64,000 nt of DNA from an uncultured archaeon. Lineage in GTDB: Archaea; Altiarchaeota; Altiarchaeia; IMC4; SCGC-AAA252-I15. Both the position numbers and the translations under genes were made by a program. The notes beneath the pieces are model-generated. The model had not been told where the DNA came from and ran no database searches. It was given only the letters and a program-made list of their open reading frames with translations. Numbering within the stretch: position 1 is the stretch's first letter; the number at the start of each line of letters is the position of its first letter. Shown one piece after another: positions 3,869 through 34,857 of this stretch. The stretch lies in assembly GCA_964587725.1 (NCBI GenBank), contig CAZPLO010000004.1, positions 16,323 to 80,322 on the forward strand, read 5' to 3'.

Positions 3869-5386
3869 GTGATACCGTATTTCAACACGGCGGTGTGGAT
3901 CACTATACTGGGGGCTGTGACCCTGGTGTGGCTGCTTTGGCGCGCGTGGAGGGGCGGCAGGCCCTCGAACGCGAGTTTGGGTGACGCCCTCGCCATTGAA
4001 TCGTACTGGATGGAGTACCTGATAGCAGTGCTGCTGCTCTCTGCAGTGATACGGTTCTCCACGGTAGACCACATATCCATCACATCCGACGAAGGGTTCT
4101 TCATATACAGCGCATGGAGAATGCACGGGGGTTTGGAACCTTACACTGGGTTCATACTCACCCAGCAGCCCCTGTACATGTACGTGACCTCGTTCATATT
4201 CGGCGTCTTCGGGGTTGGGACGGTGCAGGCGAAGATTCTGCCGGTGCTCGCATCCACGGCCACCGTCGCGTTGACGTACGTTTTTGCGTCACGGTTTTGG
4301 AGCAGGCGGCACGGCATATTTTCAGCTGCGGTGATAGGTCTGTCCCCTTATGTGGTGAAGTACACGAACGCGGCGACCGCGTATGCGGAGATAATACTCC
4401 TGAACATGGCAGCATCCTACCTGTTTCTCACTGCGGAGGGCGGCAGGAAACGACTCTTGGGGGCGGGGGCGTGCGTTGGAGTCGCGGTGTTTTATAAGAT
4501 GCTGGGTGCGGCGGCGTTGGGGCCGATGGTAGTGTATGTTGTGTTAAGGGAGAGGAACAGGGTGAAAGACCTCGCGTATGTAGGATTAGGAGCCGGCGTG
4601 GTGTTCGCTGTGGGGACGGCCCTCCTGTGGTCTCCGGAGTACGTGTACCAGGTGTTCGTGCACCACAGCCTGTACGAGGACGGCGGCCTCTGGTGCAAGG
4701 CGACCGGGTTGCTGAAGGTTCTGGCTGTGGACCCGTGGTTCATGGTTCCAGGACTAGCGGGCGCCGCACTGGCGCTGCGGACGCGGAAGCGGCGGCCCGC
4801 GGAAGACTACATGCTATTGTATCTTCTGTCGACGGTGCCGCTATTGTTCATTTTGAAGTACCTGTGCGGGTTCGCCCACCCGTACCTCTATTTCACGCTG
4901 TCCATCCCGCCGATGGCTTTGCTGGGTGGGAAGACGGTTGAGGTTGTCCGTGAAAAACACGCGGTGGTGTTGGTTTCGCTGCTGCTAGCCACATCCGTCT
5001 CATACTACATCTACTTTGTGGCCGAATCCTACAACCATGCGGTCGTGGACGCGATGGCTGCGTACGTGGAAGAGAACAGTTCCCCCGGAGACCATATTAT
5101 GGGGATGTCGTATCTCGCCTGCCCCGTCGCATTCAAGACCGGGCGGATGATTCCGCCGGAGTTCATGGAGTTCTTCCACCTCCGCGTGGGCGTGGAAGGC
5201 TACGACGTAAACTATTACGTCAACGCCACCGACAATGTGAAGTATGCTATAATGTATGATGCACGGGAGTATCCGATCTTCAACCGGTTCCTTCGGGAGC
5301 ATGCGACTGTGGAGAAGACATACGGGGTCTTGAAGCCCATACGGATATACCGGCTGGACTATATTAAACCGGAGCCCGATATGTAA
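3869..5386 (+). CDS. Glycosyltransferase family 39/83 (PMT/ArnT-like) membrane protein
   Basis: 505 aa, multi-TM N-terminal half with a DE motif in the first loop (SDEGFFIYSAW), followed by a C-terminal soluble domain. Divergent promoter shared with mazG. Confidence 0.6.
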   Translation: MIPYFNTAVWITILGAVTLVWLLWRAWRGGRPSNASLGDALAIESYWMEYLIAVLLLSAVIRFSTVDHISITSDEGFFIYSAWRMHGGLEPYTGFILTQQPLYMYVTSFIFGVFGVGTVQAKILPVLASTATVALTYVFASRFWSRRHGIFSAAVIGLSPYVVKYTNAATAYAEIILLNMAASYLFLTAEGGRKRLLGAGACVGVAVFYKMLGAAALGPMVVYVVLRERNRVKDLAYVGLGAGVVFAVGTALLWSPEYVYQVFVHHSLYEDGGLWCKATGLLKVLAVDPWFMVPGLAGAALALRTRKRRPAEDYMLLYLLSTVPLLFILKYLCGFAHPYLYFTLSIPPMALLGGKTVEVVREKHAVVLVSLLLATSVSYYIYFVAESYNHAVVDAMAAYVEENSSPGDHIMGMSYLACPVAFKTGRMIPPEFMEFFHLRVGVEGYDVNYYVNATDNVKYAIMYDAREYPIFNRFLREHATVEKTYGVLKPIRIYRLDYIKPEPDM

Positions 5387-5391
5387 CTGCT

Positions 5392-7122
5392 ATGAGGAAA
5401 CTGCTGGTGTTGTTTCTGCTAGCCAACCTGGCGTGCGCGGCGGAGCCTCCGATAACGCTGGAGTGGAGCAAGCCGGTGATCAGGGGGATACACCGCACCG
5501 ACTTCCTGGATTTAAACGGCGACGGAACCGTGGAGGTGTATGCCGTCAGCCTGGACCCCACCAGAACCACCATATACGTGTACGATCTCAGCGGCGGCGA
5601 CATGTATGACACCGTCGTACCACGTCACGCTCAGAAGACTTACGGCGACGAGGACGTGGTTTCCGCCGCCGTGGCGGACTTCGAGAAAGACGGTTTCCTC
5701 GACATAGTGTCGACGACGGAGATAGTGGCTGCGGCCGTCAACAACCACCGAGTCTACAGGTTCCAGCGCATCCCCGAGGAGGGACTGGACAGACTTTACA
5801 ACCGCTTCGCATGGACTGTTAAGGACACCGGCCTAGTCACCAGTTTGAATCTGGCGGACGTCGACGCCGACGGGACGTTGGATATAGTCACATCCAGCGT
5901 CGACTACAGGATAAGAGCCTACAGCGCCGACGGCGAAGTCAAGACAGAGTACGTGCTTAATGGCAGCGTCTGGGACGCCGTTCCAGTGGAGGTGGGCAAC
6001 GACTCCTCCCCAGAATACCTTGCCGCATGCTTCCGGGGACTCTACCTCGTAAACGACAACAGTGTAGCCCTGATTGACGACGCCGAAGAACGATTCGACA
6101 TAGCGTACGCGGCGGATGTGGACGGCGACGAACTCCCTGAACTATACGGCGTCCGCGACAACACGATACTGGCATACGACCTTCACGGGGCTCTGCTGTG
6201 GAGCTACGGGTTGGATAACGTCGCCGACCTGGATTCAATGGACATAAGAGGCTCCGACAGCTACCTGGTTGCTGCAGCCGAGAAAACACTGACCTTCTTT
6301 GACCCTGAGGGCAGTGCTGTGTGGACGCACGACACCGGGTCTAGGATAAACTCGCTGGACACCCTGGATGAGCCGTCGATGCTGTACGTCGGCACCGTGG
6401 ACGGCCTCCAAGTTTACGGGGTCAACGAGGAGTATTTCAGGCGGATTGAAGCACGCGGGGAATACGAGAAAGCCCTGTCCAATATGGCTTCGGACGGGTT
6501 CAACCTCAGTCTCCAACACGCCAAACGGGCGGCTGAACTGTACCGGAGCCTGGGGTTGGTTGATAACCAGACCGCCGCGGAGGAGCTCGCAGTCAGGGCC
6601 GGACAACTCCTGGAGGCGCGGGAACTCTACCTGGAGGCCGAACGACACTATAACGCTGGCAGATACAACCTCAGCGTCGAATACGCGGGGCGGGCGCTTG
6701 ACATGTACCGGAGCCTCGGATACGATGAGGGGGTGAACCGGTCCATGGAATTGGGGTTGGTGGGCGGCGAACGGGCGGAGGAGATAATAGCGTACGCCGG
6801 CAGACGGGAGACCGCAGACGAACATTATGCGTTGGCGGAGGCTTTGTACGTAAACGGCTCCTTCAGGGAGTCGGTGGAGTACGCCCGCATGGCCCTGGAA
6901 GAGTACGGCGAGATAGGGTACGGCGAGGGCGTCAGCCAGGCGAGGATGCTGGTGTCCCTGAACCAGGGCCTGGTTTCTGAGACCACCACCACGATGCCTC
7001 CAACAACCTCCACGCTTCCTGAAAGGGGGTTGGAGACGGACGACATAGCCTTCTACGGAATCCTCGGTTTGGCTGCGGCCATTGTGGCTGCGGCAGCCAT
7101 CTGGAGCATAAAAAACAGGTAA
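5392..7122 (+). CDS. Surface protein: signal peptide, FG-GAP beta-propeller repeats, TPR-like helical repeats, Thr-rich linker, C-terminal TM
   Basis: Signal MRKLLVLFLLANLACA; FG-GAP-like units (DLNGDGTVEVYAVS, DFEKDGFLDIVSTT, DVDADGTLDIVTSS, DVDGDELPELYGV); three units of about 55 aa resembling YxxAxxLYRSLGxxEG; TTTTMPPTTSTLPE linker; anchor IAFYGILGLAAAIVAAAAIWSI. Confidence 0.7.
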   Translation: MRKLLVLFLLANLACAAEPPITLEWSKPVIRGIHRTDFLDLNGDGTVEVYAVSLDPTRTTIYVYDLSGGDMYDTVVPRHAQKTYGDEDVVSAAVADFEKDGFLDIVSTTEIVAAAVNNHRVYRFQRIPEEGLDRLYNRFAWTVKDTGLVTSLNLADVDADGTLDIVTSSVDYRIRAYSADGEVKTEYVLNGSVWDAVPVEVGNDSSPEYLAACFRGLYLVNDNSVALIDDAEERFDIAYAADVDGDELPELYGVRDNTILAYDLHGALLWSYGLDNVADLDSMDIRGSDSYLVAAAEKTLTFFDPEGSAVWTHDTGSRINSLDTLDEPSMLYVGTVDGLQVYGVNEEYFRRIEARGEYEKALSNMASDGFNLSLQHAKRAAELYRSLGLVDNQTAAEELAVRAGQLLEARELYLEAERHYNAGRYNLSVEYAGRALDMYRSLGYDEGVNRSMELGLVGGERAEEIIAYAGRRETADEHYALAEALYVNGSFRESVEYARMALEEYGEIGYGEGVSQARMLVSLNQGLVSETTTTMPPTTSTLPERGLETDDIAFYGILGLAAAIVAAAAIWSIKNR

Positions 7123-12270: not shown

Positions 12271-14694
12271 TCAAGCGGTGAACTCCAGCGACAGCTCCTT
12301 CCCGTCTCTGTACTCTACTTCCATTATTCTGCCGGTGCCTTTGAAGTCCGCCTCCACCGCCTTAACTAGGTCGTGGACCTCCTTGGGGGCTGAGACCACA
12401 ACCTTCGACAGCTCCTTCCCGAGGCTGATGCCGTTGTCGCTCTTGTATTTGCGGGTCTCGGTGACTAGTTCCGCGAGCAGGTCGCCGTACTCCAGGGCCT
12501 TCAAATCCTCCCACCCGTCTTCGGGCTCCGGCCACCGCGTGTTGTGGACTGACTTCACGTTCTCCCTGCCGCGGAAGTATGTCTGGTAGATTTCCTCGGT
12601 TATGTGCGGCATTATCGGAGCCATCATCTTCACCACCGCCAGGAGACCGTGGTATAACGTGTACTGTGCGGCCTTCCTCGACTCTTCGCCGCGTACGTCG
12701 GGTTTGTAGAGGCGCTGCTTAACCATCTCCAGATAGAGGTCGCAGAGTATCTGCCAGAAGAACTTCTCCACCTCCGCCTTCGTCTTGCTGTACTCGTATC
12801 TCTCGAAGGATTCGGTGGAGTCCCGTATCACCTGGGAGAGGCGGGTCAGCAGCCACTTGTCCGCCACCTCCAGGTCCGGTTCACTTCCGTCGTAGTCCTC
12901 CAGGTGCATGAACACGAAACGGGACGCGTTCCATATCTTGGTTATGAATTTCTCGCCTGTTACGAGGTCTTTCTCGCTGAACGGCAGGTCGTCTCCGAGT
13001 TTGCAGCCCGCCGCCCAGAAACGCAGGGAATCGGCTGAATACTTTTCAATCATCTCCTGCGGCCCCACCACGTTGCCTTTGCTCTTGCTCATCTTCCTGC
13101 CGTGCGGGTCCTGGGCGTGGCCGGAGATGACCACGTCCCTCCACGGGTTCACGCGGTCGTGCATCCTCGACTTCACCACCGTATTGAACAGCCAGAAGGT
13201 TATGATGTCGTGGGCCTGCGGCCGCAGCGTCATCGGATATATTTTACCGTATACCGGATGGTCCTTGAACAAATCCGCGGCGAGGTGCGGGGTCAGCGAA
13301 GACGTCGCCCACGTGTCCAAGACGTCCTTCTCGGGCGTGATTTCCTTGCTGCCGCACTTCGGGCACTCCTTCACCGGCGGGTCGTCGGTGAGTGGGTCCA
13401 CCGGCAGGTCCTCTTTTCTGGCTATCACGGGCTCGTCGCACTTTGAACAATACCATACCGGGAAGGGGACGCCGAAGTACCGCTGCCTTGAAATGAGCCA
13501 GTCCCACTGGAGGCCGTTGACCCAGTGCTCGTAGCGGTGGCGCATGTAGTCGGGGTACCAGTTCAGCTGGCGGCCCCACTCCAGCATCTCGTCCTTCAAG
13601 TCCAGGTATTTGATGAACCACTGCCTGCTCTTCAGGTACTCTATCTCGGTGCCGCATCTTTCGTGGACGTTGACGGTGTGGGTTATCTTCTCCTGCCGCA
13701 CCAGCAGCCCCGCATCCTTCAAATCCTCTATGATGGCTTCCCGCGCCTCCGAAACCTTCACCCCCTCGTATTTGTCGGCGAGGGCGGTCATTTTTCCGCC
13801 GGGGGTTATAGCCACCTTTATTGGTAGGTCGTGGGCCTTCTGCCACTCCATGTCGGTCTGGTCTCCGAAGGTGCAGCACATCACGATTCCCGTTCCTTTC
13901 TCGGGGTCGGCGCGGGGGTCCGGGAGTATGGGGACTTCGAAGCCGAACAGCGGCACCTCCGCTTTCTTGCCTTCCATGCCCTGATACCTTTCGTCTTCGG
14001 GGTGGTAGAATACGGCCACGCACGCGGGCAGCAGCTCCGGCCGCGTGGTCGCTATGATGAGGTCTTTTCCGTCGACCTTGAAGACTATGTCGTTGAAGTA
14101 TGACTGAAGCTCCTTGTCCTCCGCCTCCACCTGGCTGATGCCGGTCTGGCATTCGGGACACCACATGGTGGGCGCGTCCTTGCGGTATTCCCTGCCCATG
14201 TCATACAGTTCTATGAAGGATTCCTGGCTGATTCGTTGCGAGTGCTCGTCTATGGTTGCGTAGAAGACGTTTAAATCGCAGCTCATCCCTATGCGGGTCC
14301 AGTCTTCGATGTATTTGGGCAGCAGCTCCTCCCTCAGGGTTTCCATGCACACGCGGTTGAATTCAGACCTGTCCATGTCCCGCGCGCGGATGTCCTTCAT
14401 GCGTTCCACTAGGCGTTCCGTGGGTATGCCGTTGTTGTCGACTCCGAAGGGGTAGAATACGTTGTACCCTCGCATCCTCTTGTATCTTACGATGAAGTCC
14501 TGCTGGCTGTAGCTGAACGCGTGGCCTAGGTGCATTTTGCCGGAGACCGTCGGCGGCGGGGTGTCGACGCTGTATACCTCGCCTTCTCCGTCCGGGTCGA
14601 ACCGGTACACGCCCTCGTCCTCCCAGAACCTCTGCCACCTGGGCTCGGAATCTTTCGGGTCGTATTTCTTGCCTGCAGCCATGTTTTGCACCAA
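12271..14694 (-). CDS. valS: Valyl-tRNA synthetase
   Basis: 807 aa with HLGHA (HIGH), FIVRYKRMRGYN and KMSKSKGNVV (KMSKS) motifs. The N-terminus PRWQRFWEDEGVY is ValRS-like. Confidence 0.8.
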   Translation of the reverse strand: MVQNMAAGKKYDPKDSEPRWQRFWEDEGVYRFDPDGEGEVYSVDTPPPTVSGKMHLGHAFSYSQQDFIVRYKRMRGYNVFYPFGVDNNGIPTERLVERMKDIRARDMDRSEFNRVCMETLREELLPKYIEDWTRIGMSCDLNVFYATIDEHSQRISQESFIELYDMGREYRKDAPTMWCPECQTGISQVEAEDKELQSYFNDIVFKVDGKDLIIATTRPELLPACVAVFYHPEDERYQGMEGKKAEVPLFGFEVPILPDPRADPEKGTGIVMCCTFGDQTDMEWQKAHDLPIKVAITPGGKMTALADKYEGVKVSEAREAIIEDLKDAGLLVRQEKITHTVNVHERCGTEIEYLKSRQWFIKYLDLKDEMLEWGRQLNWYPDYMRHRYEHWVNGLQWDWLISRQRYFGVPFPVWYCSKCDEPVIARKEDLPVDPLTDDPPVKECPKCGSKEITPEKDVLDTWATSSLTPHLAADLFKDHPVYGKIYPMTLRPQAHDIITFWLFNTVVKSRMHDRVNPWRDVVISGHAQDPHGRKMSKSKGNVVGPQEMIEKYSADSLRFWAAGCKLGDDLPFSEKDLVTGEKFITKIWNASRFVFMHLEDYDGSEPDLEVADKWLLTRLSQVIRDSTESFERYEYSKTKAEVEKFFWQILCDLYLEMVKQRLYKPDVRGEESRKAAQYTLYHGLLAVVKMMAPIMPHITEEIYQTYFRGRENVKSVHNTRWPEPEDGWEDLKALEYGDLLAELVTETRKYKSDNGISLGKELSKVVVSAPKEVHDLVKAVEADFKGTGRIMEVEYRDGKELSLEFTA

Positions 14695-23679: not shown

Positions 23680-24023
23680 GGCCCCGAAACCGTTAGGGAC
23701 GGCTTCAGCAGCTTCAACGCCGCCGCCAGCCCGTCGCGGTCGCGCATGTAGTATCGTTTCTCGCCTTCACGGGTCTTGATTATCAGCTGGTTGCGGCCGA
23801 CCCAGAAGATTTTGCTCACCAGCCAGTCGATGTTCTTCAGTTTCACCTCGAGTATGTCGCCGAGCTTCATCACATCCTGCATCCGCCCCGGCGCATCCTT
23901 CATGGGGCGGTTGTAGTGGAACACGAGGCCCTGCTGATACAGAATCAGAGTACCCCACTTCAGCCCGAACGCGCTGCCGTCGCACACGTCCTTCTCCAGA
24001 AACAATATGGTGTCCCTGTCCAT
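23676..24023 (-). CDS. Hypothetical small protein (possible PH-like fold)
   Basis: Internal ATG of ORF 23676..24149. A beta-rich product of about 115 aa. The upstream extension overlaps the promoter of the + gene. Confidence 0.35.
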   Translation of the reverse strand: MDRDTILFLEKDVCDGSAFGLKWGTLILYQQGLVFHYNRPMKDAPGRMQDVMKLGDILEVKLKNIDWLVSKIFWVGRNQLIIKTREGEKRYYMRDRDGLAAALKLLKPSLTVSGP

Positions 24024-24070
24024 ACAGAAAGTAATTAGATGCGGGGGGTTAATAGCGTCCACGGCGTCTA

Positions 24071-24080
24071 CTATAAAAAT
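24071..24080 (+). promoter_or_regulatory. TATA box (ctataaaaat) about 25 nt upstream of ATG 24103
   Basis: Canonical archaeal TATA spacing for a leaderless transcript. Confidence 0.45.
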
Positions 24081-24102
24081 GCGTACCCCACATAATGTAA
24101 CC

Positions 24103-24331
24103 ATGGCATCCGACAGGTGGCTGTGGACCGTACTGGCGGTAGCGTCCATAGCCTACCTCCTGAACCCCGGCATGGGGTTGTTCGAGTTCATCCCAGACAA
24201 CCTCCCCCCTGGTGGGGAACCTGGATGAAGCGGGCGCCCTACTACTGTTGCTGCGGAGCCTCGTGGAACTCGGCATACTCAAATCCGACAAAGCCGAGAA
24301 ACTACTCAACCTCCCGGAAAAACTCAAATAA
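24103..24331 (+). pseudogene. DUF1232 (YkvA-like) small membrane protein interrupted by a frameshift at a C6 homopolymer (24204-24209)
   Basis: Frame A: MASDRWLWTVLAVASIAYLLNPGMGLFEFIPDNLPP then a stop 6 codons later. Frame +1 continues as LVGNLDEAGALLLLLRSLVELGILKSDKAEKLLNLPEKLK*. Joined, this gives the DUF1232 signature FIPDxxPxxGxLDeaxxLLLLL. Confidence 0.6.
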
Positions 24332-24410
24332 TCCAGGAAAAAAAAGCATAAACAATTTAAAATTTTCTATAAACTATTTAAAAAATCACGCAGAGTCGGA
24401 GACCCCGCCA

Positions 24411-24450
24411 TTCTTTCTTTTTTCGTGAACGTTCTTTCTTTCTTTTTAAG
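24411..24450. repeat. AT-rich motif ttctttctttttttcgtgaacgttctttctttcttttt (copy 1 of 2)
   Basis: About 30/36 identity with 25621-25656. Followed by an imperfect palindrome ctttttaagaaagaaaaaagg. Confidence 0.5.
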
Positions 24451-24460
24451 AAAGAAAAAA

Positions 24461-24660
24461 GGTTCGCCGAGGCCGAGACCCCGCTCATCTCCGACTCGCT
24501 TGCCTCAACCAGGTATGTGACACACTATTGCTTAGACGTGATAAGAAAACGCCGAGGTCGAGATTCCGTCAGACCCTTCGGACCTGACTTATCTCTCCCC
24601 AGTGCGCGATACACATTCGCTCTGATGTGATAAGAATTCGCCGAGGTCGAGATTTGAACT
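24461..24660. repeat. Tandem duplications of about 80-90 bp of the tRNA-Ser 3' end plus flank (copies at 24461-24490 degenerate, 24536-24570, 24626-24660)
   Basis: gtgataagaaaacgccgaggtcgagatt versus gtgataagaattcgccgaggtcgagatt, 90 bp apart, with similarity extending about 48 nt. The third copy ggttcgccgaggccgagacc lies 79 bp upstream. Confidence 0.7.
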
Positions 24661-24725
24661 CGAGCTCCCTTTTGGGGAACACGCTTTCCAGGCGTGCGCG
24701 TTAGTCCAGGCTCCGCCACCTCGGC
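24639..24725 (-). tRNA. tRNA-Ser (anticodon GGA), type II with long variable arm, no encoded CCA
   Basis: Folded by hand on the minus strand: acceptor GCCGAGG/CCTCGGC, D-arm GCG-GAGCCTGGACTAA-CGC, anticodon stem CACGC/GCGTG with loop CTGGAAA, variable arm TTCCCCAAAAGGGAGC, T-arm TCGAG-TTCAAAT-CTCGA, discriminator G. 87 nt. Confidence 0.8.
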
Positions 24726-24858
24726 ATGAACGTAAGTGAATGCCGAGGTTAGCAACCCAGAGGGTTGCGCCTGCCTCGGCAAAGTGTTTTGTGGAGTAAG
24801 GCTTTTATATTTAATGCTTCATAGTATTTATTTCACGTTTTAATGTAGTGTGTTTGTT

Positions 24859-34242: not shown

Positions 34243-34857
34243 TCACAGCAGCCTCCTCCGGATAACGCCTATTCCATGGTTTATCAGCATCTGCACCCTG
34301 GGTTTGCTTTTGATTCTGACGCCTCCGGCTTTGAGTGCTGCGCCTAATTCGCCGTTGAAGTCTAGGGTTACGGAGCCGATTTCACGGAGTGTGTGCGCGT
34401 CGCTGCCCCCCACCATCGGCAGGCCCGCGTCGGCGCACGTCTTCACGGGATCGCGTGTATTGCCGAACGTGTGGCCGTTAACAACTTCGACGGCGTCGAA
34501 CGGCAGCTCCAGTATCAGGTCGCCCACGCCCCGCCGGTATGTGTCGTATGGGTGGGCCGCTATTGCCAGGCCGCCGAGTGAGTGTATGCGTTCGACTGTT
34601 TCAGCAGCGGAAAGGTCGCGGGGGACGAGCTCCTTTACGCCGAGGGCGAGTATGTGCCCTTCCAGGGAGGAAACCTCCACGCCAGATATGACCGTGAACG
34701 AGCCATCTGCGTATTCCAGAGCCTCCAGCGAACCGTCGATGACATCGTGATCCGTAATCGCTATGCCGTCCAGGCGCCTTCTCGCGTACTCTATTATCTC
34801 TGCGGGGCTGGCTTTGCCGTCGGACCTGCTGGAGTGGACGTGTATGTCATACAACAT
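34243..34857 (-). CDS. PHP-domain metal-dependent phosphoesterase
   Basis: MLYDIHVHSSRSDGKASP...ITDHD...GHIL, which is the PHP His/Asp pattern. Confidence 0.65.
   Translation of the reverse strand: MLYDIHVHSSRSDGKASPAEIIEYARRRLDGIAITDHDVIDGSLEALEYADGSFTVISGVEVSSLEGHILALGVKELVPRDLSAAETVERIHSLGGLAIAAHPYDTYRRGVGDLILELPFDAVEVVNGHTFGNTRDPVKTCADAGLPMVGGSDAHTLREIGSVTLDFNGELGAALKAGGVRIKSKPRVQMLINHGIGVIRRRLL

Follow-up and report, generated by a model that had tools for sequence, protein, structure and literature searches.

Partial copies of a tRNA gene that lie beside the gene are routinely read as integration scars, and the limits of proviruses and genomic islands are drawn from them. In archaea such partial duplications, of the attL/attR type, are left by tyrosine-integrase elements of the SSV, pTN3 and TKV types (PMC9897764, which cites Reiter 1989 and Williams 2002 for att-type tRNA duplications). 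The window, by which we mean the whole 64-kb stretch of DNA analysed here, comes from an Altiarchaeales-like archaeon and holds a tRNA-Ser gene that is followed by copies of its own 3′ end and preceded by a hairpin built on its 5′ end. Does this arrangement record lost integrative elements, or were the copies made at the locus, and do any of them serve the tRNA precursor?

Results

The tRNA gene and its genomic context

The minus-strand type II cloverleaf of a tRNA-Ser(GGA) described in an earlier note on this DNA was recovered both by ARAGORN (24638-24726) and as a full-length match (1-71) to Rfam RF00005 at 24639-24725, scoring 52.3 bits against a gathering score of 29. The GGA anticodon and a 13-nt insertion in the variable region follow from the ARAGORN prediction and the RF00005 alignment (Table 1). 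The gene stands in a housekeeping context of an adjoining LeuRS gene, an aminotransferase, a second class I aminoacyl-tRNA synthetase and an ABC transporter. At least 10 related loci, given here by their L numbers (L002, L003, L013, L084, L089, L090, L038, L082, L030 and L106), have the orthologous tRNA-Ser gene in synteny on the downstream side of LeuRS, and introns at the canonical position are present in the orthologues of L030, L038, L082, L090 and L106. Between 24200 and 24900 no curated Rfam family except the tRNA came near its gathering score (RAGATH-19, 27.9 versus 85.6; gyrA RNA, 22.3 versus 45). An Rfam search of the whole window at the gathering thresholds missed even the tRNA. An independent Logan assembly (L086, SRR7048220) reproduced the whole arrangement with one SNP, and the repeats are therefore not the artefact of a single assembler.

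Table 1. Features of the tRNA-Ser(GGA) locus in order of the minus strand (window coordinates)
Feature	Position	Strand	Description	Support
TATA-like box	24802-24814	-	AT-rich, ttaaatataaaag, about 27 nt upstream of the first G of the hairpin; putative promoter	
Leader hairpin	24741-24781	-	5′ arm tGCCGAGG (24781-24774), equal to tRNA positions -1 to 7; 3′ arm CCTCGGCa (24748-24741), its complement	
Inner stem of leader hairpin	24768-24762 / 24758-24752	-	GCAACCC/GGGTTGC	
Spacer between hairpin and tRNA	24726-24740	-	ttcacttacgttcat, 15 nt, homologous to the L030 and L089 spacers TTGCTCACTNACGTTCG	Alignment with L030 and L089 units
tRNA-Ser(GGA)	24639-24725	-	Type II, long variable arm, CCA not encoded	ARAGORN and Rfam RF00005
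DR1	24639-24654	-	The tRNA's own 3′-terminal 16 nt, AATCTCGACCTCGGCG: end of T-loop, 3′ strand of T-stem, 3′ strand of acceptor, discriminator	
Trailer unit A	24566-24638	-	73 nt, T-rich start aattcttatca, conserved blocks TTATCACATCAGAGCGA and GGGAGAGATAAG; includes small hairpin 24569-24589	
DR2	24550-24565	-	Exact 16-nt copy of the tRNA 3′ end; CGG before (as in L002), TTTTCTT after	
Trailer unit B	24481-24549	-	69 nt, diverged paralogue of unit A, tail aagcgagtcggagatgagcgg like that of the L002 unit	
DR3	24465-24480	-	Degenerate copy of the tRNA 3′ end, GGTCTCGGCCTCGGCG, 13/16 match; read as displaced ancestral 3′ end	
Terminator-like element	24411-24464	-	Conserved oligo-T hairpin element aaccTTTTTTCTTTCTTaaaaaGAAAGAAAGAAcgttcacgaaaaaagaaagaa	Directly 3′ of the tRNA in relatives; hairpin z = -3.6
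DR4	24389-24406	-	Fourth, strongly degenerate 3′-end-like copy, ggggtctccgactctgcg; repeat family D2, 76% to the DR3 region	

Copies of the tRNA 3′ end and the trailer units

Along the copies of the tRNA 3′ end the spacing is 89 nt from DR1 to DR2, 85 nt on to DR3 and 76 nt on to DR4. The last 20 nt of the tRNA and about 30 nt of flank had previously been noted as repeated; the copies are real, including the degenerate third one (13/16 at 24480-24465), but the identical core of DR1 and DR2 is 16 nt long (24654-24639 and 24565-24550), while the 3′ flank remains similar over a further 50 nt or so (repeat family D1, 67 nt, 73% identity). With at most one mismatch the 13-mer CTCGACCTCGGCG occurs four times in the 64-kb window, three times in the DR copies and once at an unrelated site (34638-34650). 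DR4, absent from the earlier list, is a weak copy that could have arisen by chance.

Unit A is 67% identical to the corresponding unit of L002, compared with 43% at 4-fold sites, and the window and L002 have DR2 with its preceding CGG in identical form. Moderate constraint or homogenisation is seen in both unit A and DR2, which probably belong to a longer 3′ trailer. Unit B is 58% identical to unit A and 63% to the L002 unit. The earlier note had held that absence of the repeat units from close relatives with a conserved tRNA would point to an assembly artefact. On this point the picture is mixed, since the unit is present in L002 and absent from L084 and L038, and the L106 contig ends 113 nt past the tRNA; apart from L086, which is of the same population, the relatives compared share 77% LeuRS identity at most.

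Neither unit folds better than its shuffles (z = -1.2 for A, +1.3 for B). The small hairpin within unit A does exist, although the C(UUCG)G tetraloop that had been ascribed to it is true of the plus strand only (-7.2 kcal/mol); on the tRNA-sense strand the loop is GAAG and the stem, with a G-U pair, reaches -10.5 kcal/mol (z = -3.1). Inspection led us to reject unit A and the leader hairpin as box C/D or H/ACA RNAs, since RUGAUGA and CUGA do not occur in the proper order and no ACA box follows the stem. Rfam returned no family for either unit or for the leader hairpin, and none for the larger elements, rich in hairpins, that lie downstream in L019, L023 and L030.

A displaced terminator-like element

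DR3 and its flank align with the 3′ end and flank of the tRNA in L038, L020 and L084. The T-run TTTTTTCTTTCTT is separated by 4 nt from DR3 in the window and, in these three relatives, by 4 nt from the tRNA itself; it is a run of at least 5 T just past an RNA 3′ end, the pattern by which oligo-T terminators are recognised. The terminator-like element is near-identical to positions 5483-5540 of L038, where 4-fold sites are only 24% identical. Because the element after DR3 so closely matches the one directly after the L038 tRNA, DR3 is taken to be the old 3′ end of the tRNA. This 3′ end and its putative terminator now lie about 170 nt downstream, displaced by two trailer units of about 89 nt, which implies that added DNA has parted the body of the tRNA from the 3′ end it once had.

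Like archaeal oligo-T terminators, TTTTTTCTTTCTT with its hairpin directly follows tRNA-Ser and tRNA-Arg genes in the relatives. It differs from them in being unusually conserved, near-identical at about 66% LeuRS identity, and in that similar elements also occur within tRNA introns and truncated upstream gene copies; elements of the form CCTTTTC...AAAAGAA are found within the tRNA-Ser introns of L030 and L090.

The leader hairpin and its putative promoter

The nested hairpin on the 5′ side, earlier described as reusing the acceptor-stem sequence in its outer stem, proved to be sound. An outer stem of 8 bp encloses an inner stem of 7 bp, with an energy of -25.6 kcal/mol on the tRNA-sense strand (z = -4.9) and of -29.3 kcal/mol on the plus strand (z = -6.6). 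The 64 kb contain about 13 perfect hairpins whose stems reach 8 bp or more, compared with 4-9 in shuffled sequence, and hairpin richness is no general feature of the genome. A role as an antisense terminator was dismissed, since the plus-strand T-run that follows the hairpin in the window is not present in the relatives.

The spacer at 24726-24740 is too short for a separate TATA box, and in L030, L038, L082, L084, L089 and L090 a box similar to that at 24802-24814 precedes the first hairpin by 20-40 nt. The box may accordingly represent the promoter of a transcript of hairpin and tRNA; from such boxes we infer a transcription start, co-transcription and processing. The 3′ arm of the hairpin (anti-5′) is a perfect 10-nt complement of the tRNA 5′ end (repeat I6, tRNA positions -2 to 8), and in the predicted fold of a 391-nt transcript model the anti-5′ segment is free to pair with the 5′ end of the tRNA unless the hairpin retains it.

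Conservation of the hairpin among related loci

Leader hairpins are present at 10 of 14 related tRNA-Ser loci, sometimes in arrays of two or three, and those tested in relatives fold significantly (z from -2.3 to -5.5). The copied segment of the tRNA 5′ end is 7-8 nt in the window and 12-13 nt in relatives. Its sequence tracks the acceptor stem, being GCCGAGG in the window, L002 and L030, GCCAGGG in L082 and GCCGGGG in L089. In the alignment of type I leaders, a small set of six sequences of which some are paralogues from one genome, 95.8% of the cells at 12 pairs are paired and 4 of the 12 pairs show double changes; the covariation score was reached by none of 500 shuffles, and slid controls were 30-52% paired. 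Pairs were counted on type I hairpins only, the MAFFT alignment of type II hairpins being too poor for counting. The structure of the family is thus conserved through compensatory changes at homologous positions. In L030, three diverged units each have a different, fully paired inner stem, and the anti-5′ arm of L090 is a closer match to the tRNA than to the upstream copy.

A covariance model (R1) run on 467 kb matched only upstream of tRNA-Ser(GGA), including L103, a second and independent assembly of an array of the L030 type. Between L002 and L082 the leader is 87% identical, compared with 36% at saturated LeuRS 4-fold sites, and the conservation extends through the unpaired spacer. The family persists in L013 and L020, whose LeuRS is only about 50% identical to that of the window. 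Because changes in one arm are matched in the other and in the acceptor stem, these comparisons argue that the hairpin is kept by selection. It is absent or vestigial in L003, L019, L023 and L106 and is therefore dispensable. The stem mismatches in L030, L038 and L090 are A-C on the tRNA-sense strand, that is, G-U on the opposite strand; together with the greater stability of the window hairpin on the plus strand, this leaves room for a palindrome acting at the DNA level or for an antisense function. The earlier suggestion of a tRNA-derived minihelix or processing structure agrees with these data, in that the hairpin behaves as a tRNA-derived, conserved leader or processing-type structure.

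Partial copies in relatives and the search for mobile elements

The survey of partial copies covered tRNA-Ser and tRNA-Arg loci; LeuRS-anchored contigs that end before the tRNA or show no synteny were left out (L001, L004, L083, L085, L087, L091 and L105). Copies of the 5′ end occur upstream of tRNA-Ser in L002 (two), L020 (three), L038, L082, L084, L090, L013 and L081, and at tRNA-Arg in L019. Copies of the 3′ end occur downstream of tRNA-Ser in the window (two to three), L002, L023 and L019, and at tRNA-Arg in L013. Every partial copy at the 14 related tRNA-Ser loci lies within about 300 nt of the gene; none is kilobases away and no element of kilobase scale is bracketed. Haloarchaeal tRNA-Ser(GGA) genes in the same scan had no partial copies, and a metagenome scan with a 28-nt tRNA core returned a single locus, the more distant L081.

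That no integrase is near, as had been noted, holds for the ORFs from 5.4 to 41 kb of the window, where Pfam, PHROGs and NCBIfam returned housekeeping or unknown proteins only and no integrase or mobile-element gene. An exact-match scan of IMG/VR found no contig with the 21-mers of the tRNA 3′ end or the 20-mer of the 5′ end, and thus no matching attP. IMG/VR matches to the unit-A block and to GATAAC spacer motifs were set aside as chance matches in unrelated coding sequence. A simple scanner found no bulge-helix-bulge (BHB) motif at the repeat boundaries or at 55- and 89-nt spacings; this carries little weight, because the scanner also missed the known canonical introns of relatives.

Discussion

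The hypothesis that best explains these observations, to which we assign a probability of about one half, is that of a functional tRNA-Ser(GGA) gene whose terminal copies, on both flanks, would have been generated locally, in a layout typical of the lineage, and whose leader hairpin would be selected and co-transcribed. On the observed anatomy, conservation, covariation and absence of mobile-element genes one may build the following scheme for transcription of leader and trailer, duplication and function. A copy of the 5′ end, followed by a short inner stem-loop and then by the reverse complement of the copy, would give the stable hairpin. Since it lies between the TATA-like box and the tRNA, this hairpin would most likely be transcribed as the 5′-terminal part of a pre-tRNA leader of about 55 nt and be removed by 5′ processing. 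It could act in cis on the precursor by locking away the anti-5′ segment so that the cloverleaf can form, and it may cap the 5′ end or offer an acceptor-stem-like helix to the processing machinery. On the 3′ side, the two units of about 89 nt, each consisting of flank and the last 16 nt of the tRNA, may stem from an event of insertion or duplication type followed by tandem duplication. Simple tandem duplication fails to explain the first of these events, since A-type and terminator-type flanks are not homologous. Through these units the ancestral 3′ end and its conserved oligo-T terminator would have come to lie about 170 nt further off, with DR3 and DR4 as decaying relics.

That the copies are instead scars of integrase-mediated integration or fossil att sites, as the earlier note had proposed, was not borne out, and we consider it improbable. 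Successive viruses or plasmids would have integrated into the 3′ (and 5′) end of the tRNA and been deleted nearly wholly, leaving partial copies of attL/attR type. The resemblance to documented cases is genuine: direct repeats of the tRNA terminus stand by an intact tRNA, the most degenerate copies are the most distal as though older copies had decayed, the ancestral 3′ end and terminator are displaced as expected if incoming DNA brings a new 3′ end, and integration-derived partial tRNA genes are common in archaea (PMC9897764). The dimensions are nevertheless of another order. The exact core identical to the tRNA terminus is 16 nt and not about 40-60 nt, copies are 76-89 nt apart and the intervening DNA is 69-73 nt, whereas documented archaeal cases have 44-bp repeats bracketing 9-23 kb (PMC9897764). 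There is no integrase or mobile-element gene at 5-41 kb and no IMG/VR contig with the tRNA ends, only chance matches to unit-A and spacer motifs; a distant copy was seen at none of the 14 related loci; and partial copies are found at tRNA-Arg genes and on the 5′ side as well. Conservation of the leader and of one unit is well in excess of neutral expectation, and the downstream unit is shared with L002, a relative with saturated 4-fold sites, with the same boundaries, which independent deletions would not yield. Mobile elements of a miniature kind, site-specific or intron-like and of tens to a few hundred nt, that insert into a tRNA gene, at its T-loop or 5′ region, and bring a copy to replace the displaced terminus seem to us very improbable. 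Their attraction lies in the unit of 72-73 nt with the junction CGG/AATCTCG, found twice in the window and in L002, in the patchy occurrence of type I and type II leaders relative to LeuRS similarity, and in the terminator-like CCTTTTC...AAAAGAA elements inside the L030 and L090 introns. Against them, no dispersed copies of a MITE-like kind were detected in the 64-kb window or the 467 kb of related loci, where the unit motifs, GCAACC-N-GGTTGC and the covariance model matches are confined to the tRNA-Ser locus, and we know of no recombinase that works on sites 89 bp apart.

Two further explanations concern the hairpin more directly. Template switching or fold-back at a heavily transcribed tRNA could have produced the copies as neutral by-products of replication, with arms kept matched by quasi-palindrome correction and gene conversion and with no function as RNA. 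The L002 leader has the direct-inverted-direct order that this suggests (flank and 12 nt, loop, inverted 12 nt, flank and 12 nt again), L002 and L020 hold perfect, recent tandem copies, the stems are almost purely Watson-Crick with A-C mismatches and no sense-strand G-U, and several lineages lack the hairpin. It is, however, difficult to reconcile a neutral origin with 87% identity of the leader, unpaired spacer included, against 36% at neutral sites, with the separately paired inner stems of the three L030 units, or with persistence of the family at about 50% LeuRS identity, and we regard it as unlikely. A switch in the precursor, in which the leader (5′ copy and anti-5′) and the trailer (GGGAGAGAT and the 3′ copy) serve as alternative partners of the acceptor strands, with start-site choice, 5′ trimming or a trans factor deciding whether the cloverleaf folds, would find encouragement in designed leaders that sequester the pre-tRNA 5′ region and are described in PMC8925977 as controlling RNase P cleavage. 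In the minimum free energy fold of the 391-nt transcript ACCUCGGCAU is paired to AUGCCGAGGU and the tRNA 3′ strand to GCCGAGG of the leader, the hairpin 3′ arm perfectly complements the tRNA 5′ end over 10 nt, and the L090 anti-5′ arm fits the tRNA better than it fits the upstream copy. Such pairings arise automatically from any duplicated terminus, however, the order of co-transcriptional folding favours the leader hairpin first, and in the trailer the pairing is a weak one of 5-7 bp that does not reach significance. We know of no ligand, protein or condition for such a switch and find it highly doubtful.

Returning to a selected leader hairpin with locally generated copies, the gene may be compared with the split, permuted and multi-intron tRNA genes of Nanoarchaeota and Thermoproteales, reportedly described by Randau in 2005 and Fujishima in 2009 and 2010. 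In both, tRNA termini are tied to extra complementary sequences, and relatives carry introns in the same tRNA; here, in contrast, the gene is complete and contiguous and the extra copies duplicate the exon rather than complete it. Another parallel is offered by pre-tRNA 5′ leaders whose structure modulates cleavage by RNase P, among them the designed 5′-sequestering leaders described in PMC8925977, and archaeal RNase P has been studied with model substrates (PMC3035440). Shared features are a hairpin near the cleavage site, an arm that can compete for the 5′ strand of the acceptor and a resemblance to an acceptor-stem minihelix. Unlike designed leaders, the present hairpin is natural, conserved in a lineage and built on a literal copy of the tRNA 5′ end, sometimes in tandem arrays of two to three. 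One may speculate, with little confidence, that Altiarchaeota tRNA-Ser(GGA) precursors carry a dedicated and selected system of cis-elements undescribed for any tRNA, in which arrays of acceptor-mimic hairpins in the leader and 3′-end copies in the trailer would provide alternative partners for the acceptor strands and thereby gate folding, processing by RNase P and tRNase Z, or turnover, as a natural riboregulator templated by the tRNA itself.

For the annotation of archaeal genomes, reading such copies as integration scars would be wrong in this lineage, where they lie within 300 nt, on both sides of the gene and partly under purifying selection. The locus also shows tRNA genes undergoing micro-duplication at a high rate and a tRNA terminator element whose sequence is very strongly conserved. 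Should the leader hairpin prove functional, it would offer a natural example of a pre-tRNA leader derived from the 5′ end of its own tRNA, would add a new RNA motif to annotation, and would provide a handle on how leaders affect folding and RNase P processing in these poorly known, uncultivated archaea.

Gene neighbourhood and layout of the locus

The 942-aa ORF adjoining the tRNA gene encodes leucyl-tRNA synthetase (LeuRS), with its best relatives in Altiarchaeales and other Altiarchaeota MAGs, the closest at 77% identity. The ORFs between 5.4 and 41 kb encode housekeeping proteins, including a second class I aminoacyl-tRNA synthetase, an aminotransferase, an Lrp-family regulator, LarA, a Memo-like protein and components of an ABC transporter. 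Part of them matched nothing in Pfam, PHROGs or NCBIfam, and with the same databases no integrase or recognisable mobile-element gene was found among them. The second synthetase (807 aa, tRNA-synt_1 and Anticodon_1) lies 10 kb from LeuRS, and one is likewise found near LeuRS in the related locus L084. Two overlapping ORFs convergent with the tRNA gene, both without family match, look like one small gene split by a frameshift near 24200-24230.

ARAGORN places the sole tRNA of the window, tRNA-Ser(GGA), on the minus strand at 24638-24726, and the Rfam tRNA model matched 24639-24725 over its full length with 52.3 bits and a long variable arm, which bears out the type II tRNA described in the earlier note. 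Rfam run on the whole window (1-64000) at gathering thresholds gave no match, a filter artefact, as the same 52.3 bits were obtained in a local search. A repeat finder identified a 67-nt repeat pair (73% identity, 89-nt spacing) and further copies at 85- and 76-nt spacings. With at most one mismatch allowed, the 64 kb contain the 13-mer CTCGACCTCGGCG four times; three occurrences are tRNA 3'-end copies and the fourth, at 34638-34650, is unrelated to these. Direct copies of the tRNA 3' end are thus present as first described, but the core they share exactly measures 16 nt, not 20 nt, and a fourth copy had not been listed. Likewise, the inter-repeat hairpin exists (in unit A), but its UUCG loop belongs to the plus strand (-7.2 kcal/mol) and is GAAG in the tRNA sense (-10.5 kcal/mol). 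For the nested 5' hairpin the folding energy is -25.6 kcal/mol (z = -4.9). These tool calls, and an identical arrangement 1 SNP apart in L086, an independent Logan assembly of the same population, confirm the repeats and the hairpin with small corrections.

Features of the window in 5' to 3' order of the tRNA-sense strand, followed by features of the neighbourhood and of related loci
Feature	Locus	Position	Strand
TATA-like box ttaaatataaaag	window	24814-24802	-
Leader hairpin tGCCGAGG-caggc-GCAACCC-tct-GGGTTGC-taa-CCTCGGCa	window	24781-24741	-
Spacer, 15 nt	window	between hairpin and tRNA	-
DR1, tRNA 3' end AATCTCGACCTCGGCG	window	within tRNA-Ser(GGA)	-
Unit A, 73 nt	window	between DR1 and DR2	-
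DR2, exact 16-nt tRNA 3'-end copy	window	24565-24550	-
Unit B, 69 nt	window	between DR2 and DR3	-
DR3, 13/16 copy of tRNA 3' end	window	24480-24465	-
Hairpin and oligo-T element	window	24464-24411	-
Fourth tRNA 3'-end copy, very degenerate	window	about 24406-24389	-
Overlapping ORFs	window	24007-24228; 24117-24428	+
Second class I synthetase	window	12271-14694	-
Hairpin and oligo-T element	L038	5483-5540
Hairpin and oligo-T element	L020	about 12868-12935
Hairpin and oligo-T element	L084	8915-8960
Hairpin and oligo-T element	L019	about 4330-4390
Hairpin and oligo-T element	L013	about 6390-6480
Larger hairpin-rich element	L023	14390-14540	-
Larger hairpin-rich element	L019	12960-13190	-
Larger hairpin-rich element	L030	13990-14150	+
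GATAACAC motif	L002	14530-14557; 14605-14632
GATAACAC motif	L038	5335-5358
GATAACAC motif	L082	5148-5162; 5228-5240
GATAACAC motif	L090	8637-8659
GATAACAC motif	L023	about 14690	-
tRNA-Ser(GGA) intron	L030	13789-13856
tRNA-Ser(GGA) intron	L090	8765-8819
tRNA-Arg(TCG) with repeat	L019	4460-4600	-
tRNA-Arg(TCG) with repeat	L013	6380-6500	-
ARAGORN 'tmRNA' or 'tRNA-SeC with 207-nt intron'	L030	6090-6372	-
ARAGORN 'tmRNA' or 'tRNA-SeC with 207-nt intron'	L103/L104	1153-1435	-

The leader hairpin

Related loci carry upstream copies of the tRNA 5' end. Each copy serves as the 5' arm of a hairpin, pairing with its own reverse complement as the 3' arm (z -2.3 to -5.5). Type I leaders, GCCGRGGC-inner stem-GCCYCNGC followed by the conserved spacer TTGCTCACTNACGTTCG, are found in the window, L030 (three diverged units) and L089, and also in L013, in a gene copy that lies upstream and is truncated. 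In type II leaders (L002, L082, L038, L084, L090) a stretch of 12-13 nt from the tRNA 5' end is paired with its complement. Because the inner stem-loop GCAACCC/GGGTTGC is common to the window hairpin and the type II hairpin of L002, the two types are homologous, with a symmetrical change in stem length. The arms track the local acceptor stem: GCCGAGG/CCTCGGC in the window, GCCAGGG/CCCTGtC in L082 and GCCGGGG/CCCCtGC in L089. In the type I alignment (n = 6 sequences) 95.8% of cells are paired, 4 of 12 pairs have double-sided changes, the covariation score was reached by none of 500 shuffles, and sliding the partner by 1-3 columns reduced pairing to 30-52%. A covariance model built from it matched only upstream of tRNA-Ser(GGA) in 467 kb of window and related loci, including L103, in which the three-unit array was recovered again by an independent assembly. 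Conservation and covariation support the suggestion of a tRNA-derived leader hairpin. A purely RNA-level view calls for caution given the A-C stem mismatches on the sense strand (L030, L038, L090), the higher stability of the window hairpin on the strand opposite to tRNA sense, and the missing hairpin in L003, L019, L023 and L106.

Wherever the hairpin is present, its first copy is preceded by a TATA-like box at a distance of 20-40 nt, and since the type I spacer leaves no room for a promoter, the hairpin would form the 5' end of the putative primary transcript and be taken off with the leader. The hairpin 3' arm and flank, ACCUCGGCAU, perfectly complement tRNA positions -2 to 8, and the minimum-energy fold of the whole putative 391-nt transcript uses this alternative pairing. 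As to function, which we infer, the simplest reading is that the 5' copy would hold the anti-5' segment locked in the hairpin so that the cloverleaf forms; the hairpin may also cap or present the 5' end, and a true switch is possible. Positions -11 and -23 from the first G of the tRNA or upstream copy carry the motif GATAACAC, in many cases in the doubled form GATAACACAAAGGATAACACAAT, which might act in these tRNA genes as an initiator or promoter-proximal element.

The downstream flank

LeuRS fourfold degenerate sites are saturated in these comparisons (identity 43% for window and L002, 36% for L002 and L082, 24% for window and L038). Against this background, the L002 and L082 leaders show 87% identity across 107 columns, and their differences cluster at co-varying acceptor positions. 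Unit A and the single L002 unit share 67% identity; the blocks TTATCAYATCAGAGCGA and GGGAGAGATAAG are conserved between them, and their CGG+16-mer junctions are the same. Units A and B share 58% identity, and B and the L002 unit 63%. Either A and B were duplicated long ago, or B evolves without constraint; alone, neither unit folds better than shuffled sequence. The oligo-T element 3' of DR3 has clear homologues in L020, L084 and L023 and is nearly identical to that directly after the L038 tRNA, and we therefore read DR3, together with its putative terminator, as the ancestral 3' end, which the addition of units A and B moved about 170 nt away.

This element, ACC-TTTTCTTT-loop-AAAGAAAA-CGTKCACGA-AAAAGAAAG, recurs 3' of tRNA-Ser and tRNA-Arg across Altiarchaeota and, being T-rich on both strands, may be a bidirectional terminator. 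A larger hairpin-rich element without Rfam match (tggggt-loop-accccac; GGGGAGgGTCAGG...CCTG; ACTGGGGAGGGGTGAAACCCCTCCGCGGTT) lies downstream of tRNA-Ser, ahead of the distal 3'-end copy, in L023, L019 and L030, and has ACTGGGGAG..GTCAGG in common with unit A. The window tRNA has no intron; orthologues in L030, L090, L038, L082 and L106 carry canonical-position introns of 20-68 nt, and those of L030 and L090 contain a CCTTTTC...AAAAGAA element that resembles the terminator-like element of the tRNA 3' flank. The ARAGORN calls in L030 and L103/L104 may represent a tRNA-Arg with an unusually long intron, as their termini GGGCCCGTGGGG...CCCAGCGGGTCC resemble tRNA-Arg of related genomes.

Origin of the terminal copies

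All collected tRNAs, including those of 14 tRNA-Ser(GGA) loci gathered with LeuRS as anchor, were scanned by script for their first 10 nt upstream and last 13 nt downstream. The former recur in L002 (two tandem 77-nt units), L020 (three perfect 53-nt units), L038, L082, L084, L090, L013 and L081, and the latter in the window, L002, L023 and L019; haloarchaeal tRNA-Ser(GGA) genes had no terminal copies in the same scan. For tRNA-Arg(TCG), a perfect repeat of 31 nt in L019, made of 11 flanking nt plus the initial 20 nt of the tRNA, sits 140 nt upstream with a terminator-like element after it, and in L013 the 3' end is repeated perfectly over 24 nt at a distance of 99 nt downstream.

Partial tRNA genes left by integration are common in archaea (PMC9897764), and the earlier note suggested that the 3'-end copies may be fossil scars of integrase-mediated integration and excision, or of att-site duplication. 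The order of the DNA, incoming sequence between tRNA body and old 3' end with the oldest copies most distal, is indeed that of integration. However, documented archaeal cases have repeats of about 44 bp bracketing 9-23 kb (PMC9897764), unlike the exact 16 nt about 70 nt apart found here. The 5.4-41 kb ORFs hold no integrase or element genes, exact-match scans of IMG/VR found no viral contig with the tRNA ends, none of the 14 genomes has an occupied site, copies occur at both tRNA termini, and unit boundaries are identical in two lineages with saturated neutral sites. As the defining features other than DNA order fail, integration is not supported.

Across the 14 loci all terminal copies lie within 300 nt of their tRNA, and none was found at kb distance. 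Truncated upstream gene copies in L013 and L019 (promoter, 18-20 nt of tRNA, then terminator) and the perfect tandem leader units of L002 and L020 point to frequent local duplication with internal deletion rather than integration, and the direct-inverted-direct layout of the L002 leader is that expected of replication template switching. tRNA-flanking partial duplicates and structured pre-tRNA leaders are kinds of feature already known, and the window gene is an ordinary tRNA with unusual flanks typical of its lineage.
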